Source: Betaproteobacteria bacterium (GTDB lineage Bacteria; Pseudomonadota; Gammaproteobacteria; Burkholderiales; Eutrophovitaceae). Taken from it: a stretch of 64,000 bases of DNA. Position numbers and translations under genes: made by a program. Below, in pieces: positions 25,944-33,637 of the stretch (position 1 is its first letter; every line of letters begins with the position of its first letter). Below the pieces are notes generated by a model. The model did not search any database, was not told the DNA's origin, and saw only the letters and a program-made list of their open reading frames with translations. The stretch lies in NCBI GenBank assembly GCA_020346185.1, contig CP070775.1, positions 725,398 through 789,397 of the forward strand. Reading direction: 5' to 3'.

Positions 25944-26981
25944 TTACACAGGGTCGACCTGAAACAGTTTGCGGTGATGATATGTCGCCAGACAGACGGT
26001 GCAAAGACCATCCGACCGTGAGGTTGGGGCATGGTAATCAACACCGCAAGCAGAGCAGCGCTGCGAATTCAAAGCGATCGATTGCTGAGGTGAGGTGGTC
26101 CACGGCCACAGCGAGATCGCCTTTGGCTCGCACACATCGACACACAGATGGCAGCCTGTGCAGCGCGAAGCATCTGCACGATAGTGAAGCACTTGCTCCT
26201 CGACCAATGCGAGCGCGCCTGTCGGGCAGACACGCGTACACGCATCGCAACCATCACAACGTTCGGCATCGATGAGCGGGGCCGCGGGAAACACCGCGCC
26301 CTTTGAATCAGATTCGCCGAGCAGCGCTGCCACCGTTGCCGGTGTATCGGCTTCGCCTCGATCGTGGCCGGGATCGACCATGCGCCGCAGGAACGCACGA
26401 CGGCGGGGAGAGACGGGCGTTGCGGCTGACGCGTCACGAATTACGGTGTTGAATTGCCCGCTTTCCAGATAGCGGACTTCAATTTCACGCATGCGACGAC
26501 TGCTCAACATCTCATTGACGTGTAAGACCGTTTGGTCAAGTCGCAGCGTTTGCGGGTCGCATCGCCCGCAATCCCCCGCTGTCACGACCAAACCTCGAAC
26601 ACCCGCCCCGTACAGGCGCAACAGGTCGCGCCAGCTCAGGGCATGCACGCAGGGAAGCGAACAGTGAACCTTGCCGACTCCGGAGTGCGCACACGCAAAA
26701 TACGCAGTGTTGCCCTCGCGCAAGGCCACTGATTCAACTGGTTGTTGCTGTGAATCTATGGCTTCTTGCGGGCATGCCGCCGCGCATAACATACAGCCAT
26801 TACAGGCGCTCACATCGAGTTCGAGGGCATCCTCCCCGAGCGAGAGCGCTCCGGTCGGACAGACAACGGCACACGCCTGGCAGCTCGCTCCGGCAAGACG
26901 GTCATGAACACAACGCGTCTCATTGAAAATCGGTTGCGTATTTTCGATGCGTGTTGAAGACAATGACAATCTCATCGCCAA
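25944..26981 (-). CDS. Cytoplasmic polyferredoxin (four 4Fe-4S motifs plus a C-terminal CxxC...CxxC pair), NapF-like maturation or electron-transfer protein
   Basis: Motifs CQACAVVCP, CNGCMLCAAACP, CDGCDACTRVCP, CTGCHLCVDVCEP, and CSACG...CTVC. No signal or Tat motif. Last gene of the operon. Confidence 0.75.
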   Translation of the reverse strand: MAMRLSLSSTRIENTQPIFNETRCVHDRLAGASCQACAVVCPTGALSLGEDALELDVSACNGCMLCAAACPQEAIDSQQQPVESVALREGNTAYFACAHSGVGKVHCSLPCVHALSWRDLLRLYGAGVRGLVVTAGDCGRCDPQTLRLDQTVLHVNEMLSSRRMREIEVRYLESGQFNTVIRDASAATPVSPRRRAFLRRMVDPGHDRGEADTPATVAALLGESDSKGAVFPAAPLIDAERCDGCDACTRVCPTGALALVEEQVLHYRADASRCTGCHLCVDVCEPKAISLWPWTTSPQQSIALNSQRCSACGVDYHAPTSRSDGLCTVCLATYHHRKLFQVDPV

Positions 26982-27009: not shown

Positions 27010-27798
27010 TCACCAAGACGGTTTCAAACCCGGATGGAAAGCAATCGGAACGACGTTGGTTTCCCTGTTGGGTTTCATGCGCTGTTCGATTTCCTCGGCC
27101 GAAGGTCTCGGCTCACCGTTGATCTCGACGATCAGGTCACGCAGGGCCACGCAACAGGAGGCAGTCAACAGCGCCGCCCCGGCATAGAAACCGGTTGTAC
27201 AGCGCTCGGCCACTCGCGCCGCGAAATTGGGCAGCCAGCGCAACAGATGTTCATCCATGAACCGCCCGATCTCACCCAGATCGACTTCGTCAAAGCGGCG
27301 AAGCAGTGTTTCCAGAAAGTGCAGCTGTGCCACCAGATGGTCGTCGGAGCGCGTGCGCCAGTTCTCAACCGCAAGACCGAAGCGGCGATACCAGGATCGA
27401 ATCTGGAAAGTGGCGGCCTGCAGCGCCAGCCCCTCGGCGTCCAGCCATACTGATTCGCACGGCGAAGCACGGTATTTGTGGTTCAGGTAAATCGCCGCGT
27501 AGTCGGCGGCGAGCTCATCGAGCACCCAAGCCTCAGGTGTGGCGCCAATACTGGCAAGCGATTCAGCCAGTATTGCGGCACTATCGCGCACCTGCCGGGA
27601 AAAGTCAGCCAGCATCACTGCAGCGGGAAAATCACTCTCGTGCAGATAGGCGAGCAGTTCCGGACCAAGCTCGCGATCGTGAAGTGCCGCCAAAACGCGA
27701 AGATCATCGGCCACGGCATTGCGTACCCGCTGCACCTGTGCCGCGTCGAGATCGCTGTCCATTGCGCAAGGCATGTTCTTTTCAGCCGATTCATCCAT
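27010..27798 (-). CDS. TorD/DmsD-family redox-enzyme maturation chaperone
   Basis: The LAADYAAIYL...SDDHLVAQLHFLETLL pattern is typical of TorD-like chaperones. I chose the start ATG at 27798, which overlaps the beta-subunit stop (ATGGATGA). The track start is 27840. Confidence 0.75.
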   Translation of the reverse strand: MDESAEKNMPCAMDSDLDAAQVQRVRNAVADDLRVLAALHDRELGPELLAYLHESDFPAAVMLADFSRQVRDSAAILAESLASIGATPEAWVLDELAADYAAIYLNHKYRASPCESVWLDAEGLALQAATFQIRSWYRRFGLAVENWRTRSDDHLVAQLHFLETLLRRFDEVDLGEIGRFMDEHLLRWLPNFAARVAERCTTGFYAGAALLTASCCVALRDLIVEINGEPRPSAEEIEQRMKPNRETNVVPIAFHPGLKPSW

Positions 27799-28468
27799 TG
27801 TCTTCATCCACCTTGCCCTTGCTATGCGGCACGAACGCAATCGATGGCTTGGTTAGCTGCGGATCGGCGAAATTCTTCACTGCCTTGACCGGTTTCTCGC
27901 CTGGCGCCATTGCCTTGGTCGCATGTTCGCCACGCCACAACTGTTCGATCGGCCCGATATCCAGCACCCGCATCATGCATGCCGAAACACAATACGGCTT
28001 GCGACCAGCATCGATCTCGTCGACACACATGTTGCATTTCTTGACGATGCGATCTTCGGGATCGAATTGCGGCGCACCGTACGGGCACACCGCCTCGCAG
28101 CGGCGGCAACCAATGCACAGCGTCGAGTCGATGTCGACGATGCCGTCCTGCTTGCGTTTCCATATCGCGCCGGTCGGGCAAGCCGGCAGACAAGCAGGTT
28201 CGGCGCAATGATTACAGGACATGTTGACCTTGTAGGCGTAGACTTCCGGGTAGGTACCGCCCTCGATGTACTGCACGCGACGAAAACGCGGCCCCGGCGG
28301 CAAGCCGTTCTTGTCCTTGCACGCGATCTCACAGGCACGACAACCGATACAGTCGACGTTGTGATGGATAAAGCCGAGCTGCATGTCGGGCTTGACCGGT
28401 ACGTAGGTCTCGCGCCTGCGCCTGCGTACCGCTGCCTTGACCTTTTCCTTGTCTACCTGATTCGCCAT
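27791..28468 (-). CDS. DmsB-like iron-sulfur (beta) subunit, four [4Fe-4S] motifs
   Basis: Motifs CIGCRACEIAC, CNHCAEPACLPAC, CIGCRRCEAVC and CNMCVDEIDAGRKPYCVSAC. GGAG lies upstream of ATG 28468. It has no Tat signal of its own, so it would hitch-hike with alpha. Confidence 0.9.
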   Translation of the reverse strand: MANQVDKEKVKAAVRRRRRETYVPVKPDMQLGFIHHNVDCIGCRACEIACKDKNGLPPGPRFRRVQYIEGGTYPEVYAYKVNMSCNHCAEPACLPACPTGAIWKRKQDGIVDIDSTLCIGCRRCEAVCPYGAPQFDPEDRIVKKCNMCVDEIDAGRKPYCVSACMMRVLDIGPIEQLWRGEHATKAMAPGEKPVKAVKNFADPQLTKPSIAFVPHSKGKVDEDNG

Positions 28469-28498: not shown

Positions 28499-31054
28499 CT
28501 ACATATCGCGCCGGAAGACATGTGACCTCGAGGTCGCCAACCTGTCCCAACCGGGCTTGTGCTGCAGCTTTGTTTTCTTGATGTTGACTAGTATCGTGTT
28601 GTAGGCAAAGGCGCCGGCCGGGCTCGGTTCATCGAGTGTGAGGAAATCAGGGTTACCGGCGCGGTCGACGCCATTCTCGTCCAGATCCATCCAGGCCCCT
28701 TCATGCAGCACCGCGACGTTCGGCATGCATCGCTCGGTCACGTAGACCGGCACGACAACGCGTCCCCGGTCATTCCAAATTTCGACCACATCGCCGGTCT
28801 TCAAACCAAGTTCCCGCGCATTGGCCGCATTAATCGTCACCTCCTGCTCGTAGGTCTCACGCAACCACGAGCAGTTATTGAAGATCGAATGCGTGCGCCA
28901 GCGCGGGTGAGGCGTGACCAGGTGAAACGGAAACTGTTGCGCCTTTTCACTGTTCAGTGATTCAAACGGCTCGATCCATTTCGGAATTGCAGGTATCTCG
29001 TAACCAAACTGGGTTCTGGTCCAGTCTTTGACATTGGCAATCCGGCTCGAAAAGATCTCGATCTTGCCCGACTTGGTGCGAAACTTCTTGCCTTTTTCTA
29101 TCTGATCCTGAAAGGCGACAAACGGCCGTGACAGTTTGAACTTGTAAATGCCGTGCTGCTTGAATTCTTCCCAGGTCATGGTCACGCGCTGCTTGCCCAT
29201 CACCCGCTTCTCCCACCACTCGCTCAGGTAGGCTTCGTCGGTTTCATCGTTGTTCTCGAAATAATCACTCGTTGCCTTCGGGTTGTACCGGGCCCCAAAG
29301 CCGAGCTGGTTGGCAAGCTCGGTATAGATCTGAAAATCGGTCTTGCTCTCGCCCAGCGGCTCGATCACCTTGGGGCGGTGGATGTAGTAATGGCCCTTGT
29401 ACCAGGGCAGCGCCACATCATGACGCTCGAAATGGGTGGCCACCGGCAGCAGCACGTCAGCCCAAAGTCCCGATGGCGTGATGGTCGAATCCATACACAC
29501 CACCAGATCGAGTTTCTGGATGGCCTCGATCTCCTTGTTGATGTTGGTCAGCTGATTGAACCAGTCCGATCCCTGCCAGAAAATACCGCGGATATTGGGG
29601 ATGGTGCCGTCGAACTTGTCCGGCCGCGGCCACAGCCCGATCTCTTCACGACGCACATTCGGATAGTTAAGAACGCAATGCGCCCAACGATCCGATTTGA
29701 TCGCGGCAAACCAGATGTTGGCATTCTTGTCGTAGGGGTAGGCAATCGACTGGGCATGCCATGCCTTGCCGACGCCTTCCGCACTGCCGCCGAGAACGCC
29801 GACATTACCGGTCATTGACTGCAACGCAGCCGCCATGCGGCTGTACTGCTCGCCATAGGCGGCACGGCCAGGCGCCCATGATGCCTTGAGTGCTGCTGGC
29901 TTGGTCGTCGCGTACGTGCGAGCCAGTTTCTTGATGTCGTCCGCCTTGACGCCGCAAATCGGCTCGGCCCATTCCGGCGTTTTTGGCACACCGTCAGTTA
30001 CACCAAGAACGTAATCCTTGAAGTTCTCCTGGTCCTTTGCCCAGTCCGGCATGGTGCCAGCGTCCATGCCCTGGCAGAAGCGATCGATGAAGGGCTGGTC
30101 CTGAAGGTTGTTAACGAAAATGTAATGCGCCATTGCCGCCATCATCGCCGCGTCAGTATTGGGCTTAATGGGGATCCACCATGCGTCATAGGCAGCGGCA
30201 GAATCCGTGTACTGCGGATCGACCAGCACAAACTTGCAGCCGCGCTGCTTGGCAAGCCGCATGTAATAGAAGGTGTTGCCGCCATGAAAAGTGTAGGCCG
30301 GATTCCAGCCCCACATAATGATCAGTTTGCTGTGCGCAAAGGTATCGTCCTCATTGCCGTCCTGGATGGTGCCAAAGGTCATGCGCGAACTGAATGTTGT
30401 GCCCTGGTAAGACGGCACCGACCAGGAGTTGGTACGGCAGCCGAACATACCGAGGAAACGCGCTTGTAAGCCTTCGATCTGGTCCGATTTGTGTAGCACG
30501 CCCCAGGTGGCACCAGCATAGCTTTGATCGAGTATCGAGGTCGGACCATACTTGGTCTTTAACTCGATCATTTTTTCGGTGATAAAACCCAACGCCTCGT
30601 CCCACGACGCGCGCTTGAACTTGCCTTCGCCGCGTTTGCCGACGCGCATCATCGGATAGAGCAGGCGTTCGGCTGAGTAAATTCGCTGCCGGTACGAACG
30701 CCCGCGGAGGCAGGCGCGAACCTGCGGTTCTTCTTCGGTATCTTTGCCGTAGAAACCGTCCTTCTGATAACGCCCGTCGTCCGAGGACAGGCGGACGATG
30801 ACGTCGCCTTTCTTGTGCGCCACCAAAGCGTGGCGCGAACCGCAGTTGTGCGCGCAACTGGTGACCACCGTTTCCAGATCATCGTCTCGTGGGTAGGGTT
30901 CGTAGGGGAATGCCTGCGCCTTTCCGGTGGTACCGATATCCAGCAAACCGTTGATGGCAAGCGCGCCGGCACCGGCCGCGCTAGTTTTGACGAAAGTTCT
31001 TCGTGACTGGTCGATACGCTCGGCGAGAAACTTGAAGTCTCGAGGCTTGTTCAT
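28499..31054 (-). CDS. Tat-exported molybdopterin oxidoreductase catalytic (alpha) subunit, DmsA/YnfE-like; substrate unknown
   Basis: Tat motif SRRTFVKTSAAGAGALA. FS0 region TSCAHNCGSRHALVAH...RACLRGRS. Colinear with E. coli DmsA as I recall it (YPMMRVGKRGEGKFKRASWDEA, DPQYTDSAA, IPIKPNTDAA). 851 aa. Confidence 0.9.
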   Translation of the reverse strand: MNKPRDFKFLAERIDQSRRTFVKTSAAGAGALAINGLLDIGTTGKAQAFPYEPYPRDDDLETVVTSCAHNCGSRHALVAHKKGDVIVRLSSDDGRYQKDGFYGKDTEEEPQVRACLRGRSYRQRIYSAERLLYPMMRVGKRGEGKFKRASWDEALGFITEKMIELKTKYGPTSILDQSYAGATWGVLHKSDQIEGLQARFLGMFGCRTNSWSVPSYQGTTFSSRMTFGTIQDGNEDDTFAHSKLIIMWGWNPAYTFHGGNTFYYMRLAKQRGCKFVLVDPQYTDSAAAYDAWWIPIKPNTDAAMMAAMAHYIFVNNLQDQPFIDRFCQGMDAGTMPDWAKDQENFKDYVLGVTDGVPKTPEWAEPICGVKADDIKKLARTYATTKPAALKASWAPGRAAYGEQYSRMAAALQSMTGNVGVLGGSAEGVGKAWHAQSIAYPYDKNANIWFAAIKSDRWAHCVLNYPNVRREEIGLWPRPDKFDGTIPNIRGIFWQGSDWFNQLTNINKEIEAIQKLDLVVCMDSTITPSGLWADVLLPVATHFERHDVALPWYKGHYYIHRPKVIEPLGESKTDFQIYTELANQLGFGARYNPKATSDYFENNDETDEAYLSEWWEKRVMGKQRVTMTWEEFKQHGIYKFKLSRPFVAFQDQIEKGKKFRTKSGKIEIFSSRIANVKDWTRTQFGYEIPAIPKWIEPFESLNSEKAQQFPFHLVTPHPRWRTHSIFNNCSWLRETYEQEVTINAANARELGLKTGDVVEIWNDRGRVVVPVYVTERCMPNVAVLHEGAWMDLDENGVDRAGNPDFLTLDEPSPAGAFAYNTILVNIKKTKLQHKPGWDRLATSRSHVFRRDM

Positions 31055-31109: not shown

Positions 31110-31877
31110 TTACTCGATCAGGAAACGCGGCTGCGATTCGGTGGACCGCTGCTCTGCCCAATTCGGTGTCTGCTCCGGCATCCCCGGCCATGCATGACGC
31201 GGATAGGGAAAGGCGATGCGATACCACGAGCGCCCTCCATGGCAGCCGTAGCAGAAGTCGCTGTTCTCCATTCCCGCTTTTTCAATCTCTGCCGCGTTCA
31301 GGAAATTCACCTGATGCCGCTCAGTGCGGATCGCCGCATGGCATAGCATGCAGTTGTTACCGAACATGTCTCTCGAGCTGTGCCAATCAGACGGCAAGCC
31401 CATGAGCTCATACGCAAACTGGCCATGACACATCAGGCAGGTGTCGGGATTGACCTGCTTGCGAAGTGTGAATGATTCGTTGGTGGATTCCGGCGGAATC
31501 GGTGCCTCCTCTCGCGGGTCGTGCCCCTGATGGCAGGTGTTGCACCGCATGTGCATCAAGCGTTGCGCCAACGGTGTGACCATGTGCCGGCGATGGAAGC
31601 TCTCCTGTTCGCCCTGGTAAGTAGTTAACGTTTGATACCAGGCCAACGACTCATCCGCCCGGATCCCGGCAGGCGATTGCGCGAGCGGCCTGTCATCCAG
31701 CACCTCCTGGTGACAGGCAAGACACTGCTCGTTCGTGGCGCTCTGTATGTGAGGTTGAAAGTGGATCGGATGCCAAACAGCCCCCAGGTAGTCGGCGGAC
31801 TCTTCCGCAAATGCCAAGTCCAGACCGGCACCGAGGATAAGCATTATTACCTGCACCAGGAGTTTCGACTTCAGCAT
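31110..31877 (-). CDS. Pentaheme c-type cytochrome with N-terminal signal/anchor
   Basis: Five CXXCH motifs (CLACH, CNTCH, CLMCH, CMLCH, CYGCH). N-terminal hydrophobic segment ending AFA-EE. It lacks the NapC/CymA CISCH-type N-terminus. Confidence 0.85.
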   Translation of the reverse strand: MLKSKLLVQVIMLILGAGLDLAFAEESADYLGAVWHPIHFQPHIQSATNEQCLACHQEVLDDRPLAQSPAGIRADESLAWYQTLTTYQGEQESFHRRHMVTPLAQRLMHMRCNTCHQGHDPREEAPIPPESTNESFTLRKQVNPDTCLMCHGQFAYELMGLPSDWHSSRDMFGNNCMLCHAAIRTERHQVNFLNAAEIEKAGMENSDFCYGCHGGRSWYRIAFPYPRHAWPGMPEQTPNWAEQRSTESQPRFLIE

Positions 31878-31889
31878 CGATTGACTCTC

Positions 31890-31922
31890 GAAGAAAAGCC
31901 CGGGGGGCCTTATGCCCCCCGG
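31890..31922 (-). terminator. Strong GC hairpin plus U-tract between the Met-rich gene and the cytochrome gene (intra-operon attenuator/terminator)
   Basis: Perfect 9-bp stem CCGGGGGGC / GCCCCCCGG (31900-31908 / 31914-31922) with a 5-nt loop. On the minus strand it is followed by GCTTTTCTTCG. Confidence 0.6.
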
Positions 31923-31963
31923 TGCCCACGAGTAAAAAAGTCTTGGGGCTCCGCTAGTAGCGG

Positions 31964-32557
31964 CTACTCACATGCTCCGCCCATGCCTGACATTCCGGAC
32001 ATACCAGGACCGCAATCCATACCACCGGACATACCCTCCATCGGCTCGTCCACACGAGCAGCAGGAGCGGTAGACGAGGGGTTCCCTTTGCAGGTACCGC
32101 CCATGCCAGCCATGCCCGACATGCCAGGCCCGCAATCCATTCCGGACATTTCCCCTTCGGGTTCGTACTGTCCGGACATACTGCCCATGCCGCCCATGCC
32201 ACCCATGCCTTGCTGGCTACCCATGCCGGATACCCCTTCCATCCCTGACATTCCGGACATGTCATCCATTGCCCGAGCATTCGGGTCATAGTCGCCGGAC
32301 ATGCCGCCCATACCACCCATGCCACCCATGCCTTGCTGGCTACCCATACCGGAGACGCCCTCCATTCCAGACATGCCCGTCATGTCGGGCAGATTCTCGG
32401 GCGCATTGGGATCGTAGCGCCCGGACATGCCACCCATGCCGCTCATCGCATCCATGCCGGCTTCCATGCCCTCAGGTTGAGCGCTCGCCACCCCGCTCAG
32501 CATCGTAAGCATTGCACCGAGACCAAGCGCCAGCGTGATCTTTGATGTCTGTTTCAT
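31964..32557 (-). CDS. Secreted Met/Gly/Ser-rich repetitive protein (36 Met in 197 aa) with two DCGPGMSGMxGMGGxC motifs
   Basis: GAGGAG RBS 8 nt upstream. Sec signal peptide ...LSGVASA-QP. The mature part is almost entirely GM/SGM repeats. First gene downstream of the FNR-type boxes and on the same strand as the operon. Confidence 0.8.
   Translation of the reverse strand: MKQTSKITLALGLGAMLTMLSGVASAQPEGMEAGMDAMSGMGGMSGRYDPNAPENLPDMTGMSGMEGVSGMGSQQGMGGMGGMGGMSGDYDPNARAMDDMSGMSGMEGVSGMGSQQGMGGMGGMGSMSGQYEPEGEMSGMDCGPGMSGMAGMGGTCKGNPSSTAPAARVDEPMEGMSGGMDCGPGMSGMSGMGGACE
32141..32386 (-). repeat. Intragenic tandem duplication (2 x ~123 bp) within the Met-rich gene
   Basis: Residues 58-98 and 99-139 are near-identical (D-M-[TS]-GMSGMEGVSGMGSQQGMGGMGGMG[GS]MSG-x-Y-[DE]-P). 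The DNA blocks around 32197-32270 and 32317-32390 align closely. Confidence 0.85.
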
Positions 32558-32743
32558 TCTTTTATCTCCTCTGCTTGTACAGTCTTATTAAGGTAACCGC
32601 CGTGTCTGCACGACCTCACTAAATCAGGCATGCTGACGGTGATGTACCACGCGCTTCAGGATTAACGCCTTCCCCCTCTGCTCGCACCAGCATTAACCAC
32701 ATAACTACACAAAGTCAAGATACTCGCTCGCGACAAATCGCAT

Positions 32744-32757
32744 TTGACGTGTATCAA
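32744..32757 (-). promoter_or_regulatory. FNR/CRP-family binding box, promoter-proximal
   Basis: TTGACGTGTATCAA against the FNR consensus TTGAT-N4-ATCAA (one mismatch). A TATCTT -10-like hexamer (32717-32722, minus strand) lies 21 nt downstream. That puts the box centre near -41.5, a class II architecture. Confidence 0.6.
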
Positions 32758-32775: not shown

Positions 32776-32789
32776 TTGACGTGTATCAA
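32776..32789 (-). promoter_or_regulatory. FNR/CRP-family binding box, distal (identical copy)
   Basis: An identical 16-mer ATTTGACGTGTATCAA is repeated 32 bp (about three helical turns) upstream of the proximal box. Confidence 0.55.
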
Positions 32790-32978: not shown

Positions 32979-33293
32979 CTACTCCGGGCTCTTGCCGGCG
33001 TGCCGTTGATGCCAACCACGGATATCGTAGCGGCCGGTCATCCCCGGACGGTTGAATGGCGTATGCCAATTACCCTGGTCATCAAGGAAACGCAGGCTTG
33101 CAGGATAAGGCCGGGAGATGCCCGTCAAAGAGTAACGAAACCAATCGGAACCATGATCAACGCTGGTGATCACCGGGGCGCCTTCGGGGCGTTGCCAAGG
33201 CGTCAATCCGGCGCCAGCCTCGCCCGCCGCCGTCGCAGTGACCGAGTTAAACGTCAGCAGTCCTACCGAGAACCACAAGCTTCTATGCAACAT
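32979..33293 (-). CDS. Hypothetical small secreted protein (about 104 aa)
   Basis: Taking the internal ATG 33293 gives MLHRSLWFSVGLLTFNSVTATAAGE..., a signal-peptide-like N-terminus. The C-terminal block is WHTPFNRPGMTGRYDIRGWH. The RBS is weak and I recognise no family. Confidence 0.45.
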   Translation of the reverse strand: MLHRSLWFSVGLLTFNSVTATAAGEAGAGLTPWQRPEGAPVITSVDHGSDWFRYSLTGISRPYPASLRFLDDQGNWHTPFNRPGMTGRYDIRGWHQRHAGKSPE

Positions 33294-33637
33294 AACAATG
33301 GTATCCCACTGTCCACACCGGCACAGCTCAGCGCCGAAAAAGTTCACCTTCAATAAAACCACTCTTTGCAGCAAGCTTACCACTCGGAAAACGTGCCTCG
33401 AACGACTTTCTGTGCTCTTTTTGACCGAGCTCAAATTAGATCCTGAGCGTCACCCGCAAACGGGTCATGCAGAAGCTTCTAACCTGCTTACCCCTTTATC
33501 ATTTCGATTTCGCGGTTCGAAGGCTAAATTGGTTTCGTGCCTGCCGCAGTCCGAAGTAAGTCAGGCTCGAGGGCGATGTCACGGCGCCAGCAGCGACGCG
33601 GCAACACGGATAAGGAGCTTGCAACAGAAAAAAAACT

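Follow-up and report, generated by a model that had tools for sequence, protein, structure and literature searches.

A methionine-rich secreted protein is encoded in a 64,000-nucleotide stretch from a Betaproteobacteria bacterium (assembly GCA_020346185.1, contig CP070775.1, positions 725,398 to 789,397), referred to here as the window. Its gene (31964..32557, minus strand; 197 aa with 36 Met, by open reading frame (ORF) call and residue count) heads a minus-strand cluster encoding a cytochrome c, a DmsA-like and a DmsB-like protein, a TorD-like protein and a polyferredoxin. The protein belongs with Gly-Met-Ser repeat proteins that apparently form an undescribed family, encoded nearly always before a dimethyl sulfoxide (DMSO) reductase-like operon in sulfur-oxidising or denitrifying bacteria. 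We propose that this family is probably the DmsA-like enzyme's own methionine/methionine sulfoxide redox partner.

Linkage of the repeat gene to the DmsA-like operon

More than 550 stretches in a collection of species-representative genomes encode a relative of the DmsA-like protein, and the best 80 of them, 75-89% identical in that protein, were kept. These 80 loci span Beta-, Gamma- and Alphaproteobacteria plus one Desulfobulbus metagenome-assembled genome (MAG); the carriers include Thiodiazotropha, Sedimenticola, Thiobacillus, Dechloromonas, Competibacter, Thiothrix, Thiomargarita and Hyphomicrobiales. A Met-rich stretch was defined as at least 9 Met in 40 codons on the sense strand within 3 kb upstream. 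The count covers the 77 loci in which the cytochrome gene is adjacent and the upstream DNA extends for at least 150 nt. Such a stretch lies upstream of the enzyme cluster in 63 of the 77, against a background of 5 matches in about 735 kb elsewhere in the same loci. Where at least 2 kb of upstream DNA is available (47 loci), three loci (L063, L078 and L079) have no Met-rich stretch at all and another three hold just mini-versions (56-62 aa) or a frameshifted copy. The linkage also holds in reverse. A metagenome scan that started from a typical repeat protein, its query containing a family-specific island, returned 24 contigs, 18 of which carry the small upstream gene described below and/or the cytochrome and DmsA genes. 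These counts apply to loci that are mostly MAGs and were picked as best matches to one enzyme clade.

Both scans bear out the link to the enzyme drawn in the original prediction. Homologues confined mainly to copper loci would have spoken against that prediction; the opposite is seen, as compositional relatives sit at the molybdoenzyme locus. Its remark that this placement was not known to be described likewise stands, as no account was found in open-access papers and preprints. A Met-repeat partner of a DmsAB-type enzyme is undescribed in the same literature, including an August 2026 review of sulfoxide reductases. Open-access work on Gly-Met repeats, or on methionine-rich proteins together with DMSO reductase, cytochrome, symbiont or collagen-like, yielded GroEL tails, MrpX and copper proteins only, and papers on Hyphomicrobium and other sulfur oxidisers gave no account of the DmsA-like clade.

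The family is nearly invisible to direct searches. A word-indexed search with the window protein, limited to 8000 candidates, missed even the identical sequence that an exact look-up finds in the same collection. With the window protein as query, HMMER found one true homolog (P0001), all other matches being compositional only, and the family surfaced only through loci fetched by their DmsA-like neighbour. Many contigs end or are masked inside the repeats (L011, L014, L017, L020, L021, L028, L031, L035, L038 and others), and runs of N lie within the repeat gene in L009 and L048. Breakage of contigs inside the repeats probably explains why the family is so hard to see in protein databases and searches. 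Several repeat genes can occur in one locus, as in L090 (7314-8228 and 11859-12779), L088 (509-1279 and 7279-8205) and L007 (three ORFs), the extra copies sometimes being parted by unrelated genes.

The Met-rich frame is coding

The genome of locus L107, whose DmsA-like protein is 94% identical to that of the window, carries a 199-aa Met-rich ortholog sharing the signal peptide layout, the YDPNAPENLP island and both Cys motifs with the window protein. Between the two genes, 65 of the 101 nucleotide differences fall at third codon positions. The ratio of nonsynonymous to synonymous differences (pN/pS) in the sense frame is 0.17 with a pS of 0.48, the neighbouring cytochrome and dmsA genes having a pS of 0.43-0.45. 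The antisense frames are interrupted by stops, and their ratios are 0.33-2.96. The Met-rich sense frame is coding and under purifying selection, and its low pN/pS reduces the Pro-rich ORF of the opposite strand (31632..32291, plus strand) to a shadow.

The original prediction had named this opposite-strand ORF as possibly the real gene, and the comparison with L107 favours the sense frame. That the Met-rich ORF is no gene, with either the Pro-rich ORF or neither frame expressed, can be practically dismissed. The antisense ORF (219 aa) does exceed the sense ORF in length when the window is taken alone, but it runs into the cytochrome gene. Loci that are more distant have their antisense 'MPPMPD' frames in pieces, whereas the sense ORF is whole and starts with a signal peptide. 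The antisense ORF mirrors ATG-GGN repeats, which read CAT-NCC on the other strand, and the same shadow is seen in every related locus.

Composition and expression signals of the window protein

The protein contains 36 Met, 52 Gly and 22 Ser, lacks His and has four Cys (residues 142, 156, 182 and 196). A Sec signal peptide, read from the translation, covers residues 1-26 (MKQTSKITLALGLGAMLTMLSGVASA, cleaved after VASA and before QP; 32480..32557, minus strand); the L107 ortholog has the same layout, with AYA before QP. The mature part of 171 aa holds 33 Met, giving a Met content of 18% overall and 19% after cleavage. Gly and Ser together make up 38% of the protein, charged residues (Asp, Glu, Lys and Arg) 27 of 197 (14%), and 21 MxxM spacings are present. 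Among the 111 window ORFs of at least 100 aa it ranks first in Met (18.3%, the next having 8.3% and the median being 2.6%), with a binomial P of about 5e-18 at 3% Met. The motif DCGPGMSGM[AS]GMGG[TA]C occurs twice with an offset of 40 residues, at residues 141-156 (DCGPGMSGMAGMGGTC; 32090..32137, minus strand) and 181-196 (DCGPGMSGMSGMGGAC; 31970..32017, minus strand); by sequence comparison it is kept in L107 and not present in L108 or L003. Pfam and NCBIfam gave no match for the protein, and an exact-sequence look-up found an identical protein on two JGI metagenome contigs.

Our recount agrees with the original prediction on the 36 Met in 197 residues, the 33 in a mature part of about 171 aa, the absence of His and the four Cys in two motifs 40 residues apart. 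Its description of a secreted low-complexity protein is matched by the signal peptide, the cleavage site and the composition. It had listed three GMSG-x-Y-(D/E)-P units; GMSGxYDP is literal at residues 43 and 85 only, and the third unit reads SMSGQYEP.

The expression signals that it described are also present. A ribosome-binding site, AGGAG, lies 8 nt 5' of the ATG (32566..32570, minus strand). A terminator-like hairpin, CCGGGGGGC-ATAAG-GCCCCCCGG followed by GCTTTTCTTC, stands between the Met-rich and cytochrome genes (31890..31922, minus strand), its 9-bp stem being all G:C (31922-31900) and followed by a T-run. The stem is preserved in L107 with a different loop, and 18 of 34 loci have a comparable hairpin with T-run directly 3' of the repeat gene. 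This recurrence suggests, as had been predicted, that the Met-rich protein is made in excess over the enzyme, whereas the one transcriptome considered next points the other way.

The orthologous 'DMSO reductase' of Candidatus Thiodiazotropha endoloripes ranks with that symbiont's most highly expressed genes; its substrate was given as unknown and its role called intriguing (PMC6872982). The gene just upstream of the cytochrome there, 1011 nt long and annotated 'Signal recognition particle Ffh SRP54', takes 0.29-0.67% of reads (PMC6872982). This gene (peg.2062 / A3193_10185) matches the repeat gene of the Thiodiazotropha genome L029 in position and length. Going by these coordinates, it is presumably the repeat gene under a wrong label, which the Met-rich composition presumably caused. 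This presumed homologue is transcribed, with length-adjusted reads below those of dmsA. It does not appear in the portion of the proteome table that was covered, an absence that says little for a protein type with few tryptic sites.

Architecture of the repeat family

The 39 full-length repeat proteins have a median length of 307 aa and contain 25% Met, 36% Gly and 15% Ser, and most of them open with a Sec signal (Lys/Arg, then a core of hydrophobic residues, then a small-x-small cleavage site). The shortest repeat proteins have 56 aa and the longest 445, with a Met content of about 25% and up to 115 Met in the largest, in loci whose DmsA proteins are 75-89% identical. Since the repeat proteins vary hugely in length and sequence and DmsA hardly at all, selection would act on bulk properties plus a few short motifs. 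Typical members have about 80% of their length in unbroken runs of 20-66 Gly-X-Y triplets, in which X is Met in 93% and Y is Ser in 52% and Gly in 34%. Owing to these strict triplets they score above the Pfam Collagen threshold (PF01391; 37-110 bits with a cut-off of 27.2). The original prediction had not picked up this strict Gly-Met-X repeat of the typical family. Clade-specific islands interrupt the runs (YFxITPxGxIFFYP in 20/39, WTCTQW in 8/39 and EGQKG in 4/39), and the C-terminus of most members is formed by WxPP, by lysines, or by GW and a single further residue. Thiodiazotropha-type members in the loci contain merely 7-8 Lys/Arg and thus few tryptic sites.

The window protein has Gly-X-Y runs of 3-5 triplets only, the longest being 5, and no PF01391 match. 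On sequence grounds it forms, with L107, L108, L003 and P0001, a degenerate betaproteobacterial variant of the family. This variant bears Y-D/E-P islands and, in its two closest genomes (the window's and L107), the Cys motifs. At the other end of the size range are mini-versions of 56-62 aa (L025:4941-5111 and L037:4846-5037), in which a signal peptide is followed by about 8-11 Gly-X-Y triplets, mostly Gly-Met-X, and then WNPPK or EGKK. Their size suggests that the minimal functional unit is small. Outside the operon, some c-type cytochromes (P0002, P0003 and P0005), among them a NapC/NirT-type quinol dehydrogenase, carry Gly-Met repeat modules as linkers or tails, and in L101 a Gly-Met repeat gene adjoins a cytochrome c gene.

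The enzyme cluster

Family scans of the window confirm the molybdoenzyme/cytochrome operon in which the Met-rich gene had been placed, with all genes on the minus strand. The gene next to the Met-rich gene encodes a pentahaem c-type cytochrome (31110..31877; 255 aa, five CXXCH motifs and a signal peptide), which lies upstream of the DmsA-like gene in 78 of the 80 related loci (the exceptions are L036 and L046). It is followed by the catalytic subunit (28499..31054; 851 aa), a DmsA-like protein of the molybdenum-bis(pyranopterin guanine dinucleotide) type with a twin-arginine translocation (TAT) signal and Ser215 as Mo ligand, and by a DmsB-like subunit of 225 aa with four iron-sulfur (Fe-S) cluster motifs (27791..28468). 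A TorD/DmsD-type maturation chaperone (27010..27840) and a cytoplasmic, NapF-like polyferredoxin (25944..26981) complete the cluster, the polyferredoxin gene adjoining the operon in most loci long enough to show it. Homologs of the DmsA-like protein from other organisms have 76-94% identity among the matches listed.

Several features place the catalytic subunit in the S-/N-oxide reductase branch. It matches the DmsA/YnfE models best, its nearest neighbours among solved structures are Rhodobacter DMSO reductase (DorA) and trimethylamine N-oxide reductases (TorA), and the Mo-ligand Ser is conserved: Ser215 aligns with the Mo-ligand Ser147 of DorA (1eu1) and is invariant in alignment A1. The TAT motif reads SRRTFVK, with a weak PF10518 match (18.7 bits, cut-off 22.7). 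The motif of the N-terminal Fe-S cluster, FS0, is C67-x3-C71-x3-H75...C115, and H75 is invariant in 23 sequences; E. coli DmsA has a third Cys at the place of this His. Residues 67-75 (C-A-H-N-C-G-S-R-H) are encoded at 30830-30856 on the minus strand.

No membrane quinol-oxidising anchor of the DmsC/NrfD type is encoded in the operon, which has the pentahaem cytochrome c instead. Without a DmsC-type anchor, electrons must pass via the cytochrome. We propose that the cytochrome and the DmsA/DmsB-type reductase would together form a soluble periplasmic complex.

A possible methionine/methionine sulfoxide cycle

We favour a periplasmic cycle between methionine and methionine sulfoxide that would run between the Met-rich protein and the adjacent reductase, resembling the MrpX-MsrPQ system with different parts, and we put its probability at a little under one half. 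The Sec-exported protein would be mostly unstructured or polyproline-II-like in the periplasm, with solvent-exposed Met between Gly and Ser as its functional groups. Periplasmic oxidants would turn the thioethers into methionine sulfoxide; alternatively the adjacent enzyme might do so by running in reverse. The co-encoded Mo enzyme would reduce the sulfoxides back with electrons from the cytochrome c pool, and the pair would act as an oxidant sink or redox buffer. The original prediction had offered an oxidant sink and a copper binder side by side.

The branch to which the enzyme belongs, a precedent and the accessibility of the thioethers make us rate this cycle best. DorA reduces protein-bound methionine sulfoxide with a kcat/Km of about 10^4-10^5 M-1 s-1 (PMC7402097); methionine sulfoxide is also reduced by E. 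coli DmsABC, whose inducers include hypochlorous acid (PMC12096835). In the MrpX-YedY pair, a Met-rich periplasmic sink is recycled by a Mo enzyme (PMC4436054). Nearly every third residue of the repeat proteins is Met flanked by Gly or Ser, which is close to the most accessible display of thioethers possible. In addition, a conserved composition without a conserved sequence is what would be expected if bulk thioether content matters. The coding frame with its export signal, the linkage seen from both sides, and the expression of the enzyme and of the presumed repeat gene in T. endoloripes also speak for it.

Other observations weigh against the proposed cycle. The DmsA-like clade is without biochemical characterisation, and the catalytic subunit scores 628.7 bits with TIGR02166, below the curated DmsA/YnfE cut-off of 777.7. 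The SYGW motif has been reported as necessary for sulfoxide reduction in DorA-like enzymes (PMC7402097); it is absent from the DmsA-like protein, in which the segment aligned to it is SYAGATW (SYAG...W). Hydrogen peroxide oxidises methionine slowly (PMC4436054), so a fast oxidant or an enzymatic route must be assumed. Regulation looks anaerobic or redox-like and unlike an oxidant-stress regulon, with FNR-like boxes in the window and sigma-54, an NtrC-type regulator and a haem-motif kinase elsewhere. In typical members the strict Gly-X-Y register, the conserved aromatic islands and the WxPP ends point to structural or docking constraints beyond bulk Met. Finally, L063, L078 and L079 hold the enzyme without a repeat gene, which makes the repeat gene dispensable for the enzyme as such.

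A further reading would make the repeat protein the enzyme's dedicated redox pool, a protein-bound sulfoxide 'battery' that would be categorically new; we consider this quite unlikely. Such a battery would store two electrons per Met, about 66 per window molecule and up to about 230 in the largest relatives, and its charging and discharging would run via the DmsAB-like enzyme and the pentahaem cytochrome. At oxic-anoxic boundaries it could serve sulfur oxidisers and denitrifiers to buffer electron flow. If true, it would explain the high expression of a 'DMSO reductase' without a known DMSO source in lucinid clam symbionts.

Comparison with characterised sulfoxide-reducing systems

MrpX of Azospira suillum is a small Sec-exported protein with about 20% Met and 44% charged residues. 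Its gene shares an operon with that of a periplasmic, methionine sulfoxide-reducing molybdoenzyme, and the protein serves as a regenerated sacrificial sink (PMC4436054). The window protein resembles MrpX in its signal peptide, its predicted periplasmic location and its Met content (18-19%), and it is likewise encoded with a periplasmic molybdoenzyme. However, it is Gly/Ser-rich and has 14% charged residues. The partner of MrpX is the sulfite-oxidase-family MsrP with the membrane haem-b protein MsrQ, whereas the window encodes a DMSO-reductase-family DmsAB-like enzyme with a pentahaem cytochrome c. In addition, yedYZ (msrPQ) is under SigF/NrsF, whereas the window cluster has FNR-like boxes and other lineages have sigma-54 elements. 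The window protein thus falls outside the MrpX family by composition, partner enzyme and regulation.

The adjacent enzyme shares TAT export, the Ser Mo-ligand and a DmsB-type partner with the DmsABC, DorA and MtsZ systems, whose characterised members reduce free and protein-bound methionine sulfoxide (PMC7402097, PMC12096835). It differs from them in lying under the DmsA/YnfE cut-off, in having a pentahaem cytochrome c in place of a DmsC anchor, in the His at the third Cys of FS0 and in SYAG...W at the place of SYGW. A dedicated Met-repeat protein is found in none of the characterised systems.

Alternative functions of the repeat protein

A structural role, in which Gly-Met-X triplets would form collagen-like triple helices or polyproline-II bundles, seems to us unlikely. 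The protein would then be a periplasmic matrix or tether organising the cytochrome-reductase complex, or a coat on the hydrophobic sulfur deposits of sulfur-storing bacteria, and many carriers do store sulfur. Like the bacterial collagen-like proteins Scl and Lcl (PF01391), typical members consist largely of long unbroken Gly-X-Y runs and exceed the Pfam threshold, and their conserved aromatic islands and their WxPP, GW or lysine-rich ends could nucleate assembly or dock partners. The fusion of Gly-Met modules to c-type cytochromes elsewhere fits such a role, as do the Gly/Met tails of GroEL, which populate polyproline-II helices (PMC12571646). Unlike Scl and Lcl, however, the repeat proteins are predicted to be periplasmic and are encoded in a redox operon, with Met at 93% of X positions and no recognised trimerisation domain. 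Their triplets lack Pro and often have Gly at Y, both of which disfavour a stable collagen triple helix, and the triplet register could just reflect expansion of 9- or 18-nt units. The window protein, with its short runs and no Pfam match, is still under purifying selection, and the mini-versions occur as well. The carriers also include taxa such as Dechloromonas and Hyphomicrobiales relatives, which are not known to store sulfur.

Buffering of soft metals is improbable. The MxxM arrays would bind Cu(I), Ag(I) or Hg(II) and so shield cytochrome c maturation and the Fe-S/Mo enzyme. The 21 MxxM spacings in an oxidising compartment, joined in the window lineage by the Cys pairs, recall the Met-rich Cu(I) binders (the CueO insert, PcoE/SilE, CusF and the Mets motifs of Ctr1). 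In CueO and its relatives, Cu(I) is recruited by Met-rich segments (PMC11494321, PMC12041951), and c-type cytochrome assembly is described as a copper target (PMC4600104). An unrelated Gly-Met/Lys tail in L099 sits on a domain that, judged by eye, is heavy-metal-associated-like. Against this, the window protein lacks Trp co-ligands and has no His, the co-ligand of PcoE/SilE and CopA-type repeats. Inspection of the window and of related loci turned up neither copper-responsive regulators nor genes of the cop, cus or pco type. The Met-rich gene is accompanied by a Mo enzyme, a cytochrome and FNR-like or sigma-54 controls, and the linked S-oxide-reductase-type enzyme has no known copper need.

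Very improbable in our view is an action as a holdase or assembly aid, in which the flexible hydrophobic repeats would bind unfolded periplasmic proteins, such as the pentahaem apocytochrome, during maturation or stress. The repeat gene is encoded alongside a multi-cofactor periplasmic complex, and the protein shares Gly-Gly-Met chemistry and polyproline-II propensity with the client-binding (GGM)4M tail of GroEL (PMC12571646, PMC11978752). That tail, however, comprises 13 residues on a cytoplasmic chaperonin, compared with hundreds of residues in a secreted stand-alone repeat protein, and up to 115 Met in 445 aa far exceeds what a tail-like holdase would need. The operon already has a dedicated TorD-type chaperone, and three loci manage without the repeat gene. 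Several further ideas were considered. A sulfur-globule envelope protein was set aside because its composition differs and some carriers do not store sulfur, and a selenium- or sulfur-nanoparticle binder for want of support. A haem sponge acting by bis-Met ligation was likewise put aside. Storage of methionine is unlikely because the protein is secreted.

The upstream region and its regulators

The gene upstream of the Met-rich gene encodes a small conserved periplasmic protein (32979..33293, minus strand; 104 aa starting at MLHRSLW..., within a 151-aa ORF that ends at 33434 in the ORF list). In 47 loci the repeat gene is directly preceded by a homolog (for example L029:3629-3913 and L107:1827-2147; alignment A2). 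All of its 373 database homologs are 'hypothetical' and none has a Pfam domain; one hypothetical protein, from a Betaproteobacteria MAG, is 100% identical. Pfam and NCBIfam gave no match for the window copy, and its AlphaFold model is poor (predicted local distance difference test (pLDDT) 62.5, predicted template modelling score (pTM) 0.24). The C-terminus, RPGMTGRYDIRGWH, looks like the GMSGRYDP units found in the window protein and also like GMSGW(R/N/TPP), in which typical repeat proteins end, a likeness that may reflect a shared docking site.

Between the two genes lie two identical FNR/CRP-type palindromes (TTGACGTGTATCAA), the proximal box at 32744..32757 and the second, 32 bp from it, at 32776..32789, placing them 193 and 225 nt 5' of the Met-rich ATG. 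TTGAYNNNNRTCAA has no further match in the 64 kb, where 0.2 matches would be expected by chance, and a box of this type is shared by the relatives L003 and L108. No sigma-70 consensus promoter was found near the Met-rich gene, and no sigma-54 site (at most one mismatch) was found upstream in the window. More than 30 other loci have a -24/-12 element of the sigma-54 type (TGGCAC-N5-TTGCW with no more than one mismatch) about 70-160 nt 5' of the small gene, examples being L019:3277, L022:3600, L029:3556 and L053:2760. Gammaproteobacterial and Thiobacillus loci have a divergent sensor kinase bearing a CxxCH (haem) motif, and in the Thiobacillus locus L019 an NtrC-type regulator stands beside it. 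The window lineage is without the sigma-54 element, the CxxCH kinase and the NtrC-type regulator, and has the FNR-like boxes in their place. The prediction that the Met-rich gene is the first after the promoter therefore holds for the window lineage with its two boxes, but not for most other lineages, where the sigma-54 promoter lies one gene further up.

Gammaproteobacterial loci carry a further secreted protein upstream (L029:2344-3156, L022:2318-3253 and L008:1625-2701). It consists of LRxxLxxxGWxxxxxxDGSxxYxP repeats and a C-terminal ...SGFxGxxVGRIRKVxxIYxVSxV... domain, and in T. endoloripes its counterpart, A3193_10180, ranks with the top transcripts and proteins. A C-terminal domain of the same type also closes a (Met-Asn-Gly)n repeat paralog in Sedimenticolaceae (L010:6-677).

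Implications

The repeat genes fall into a blind spot. They break assemblies, saturate word-based protein searches, mostly encode few trypsin sites and draw wrong labels, such as collagen models or, in the Thiodiazotropha dataset, SRP54. Together these properties could explain why the family went unremarked. The label routinely given to the DmsA-like enzyme itself is 'anaerobic DMSO reductase', in symbionts that oxidise sulfur as well as in giant sulfur bacteria and the denitrifiers of wastewater. Should the pairing prove functional, the repeat protein would be a concrete candidate substrate for an enzyme that is 75-89% identical over three proteobacterial classes and very highly expressed in one symbiont. 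The concept of a sacrificial methionine protein paired with a Mo reductase would then cover the DMSO-reductase family in addition to MsrP, and environmental chemolithotrophs in addition to pathogens and perchlorate reducers.

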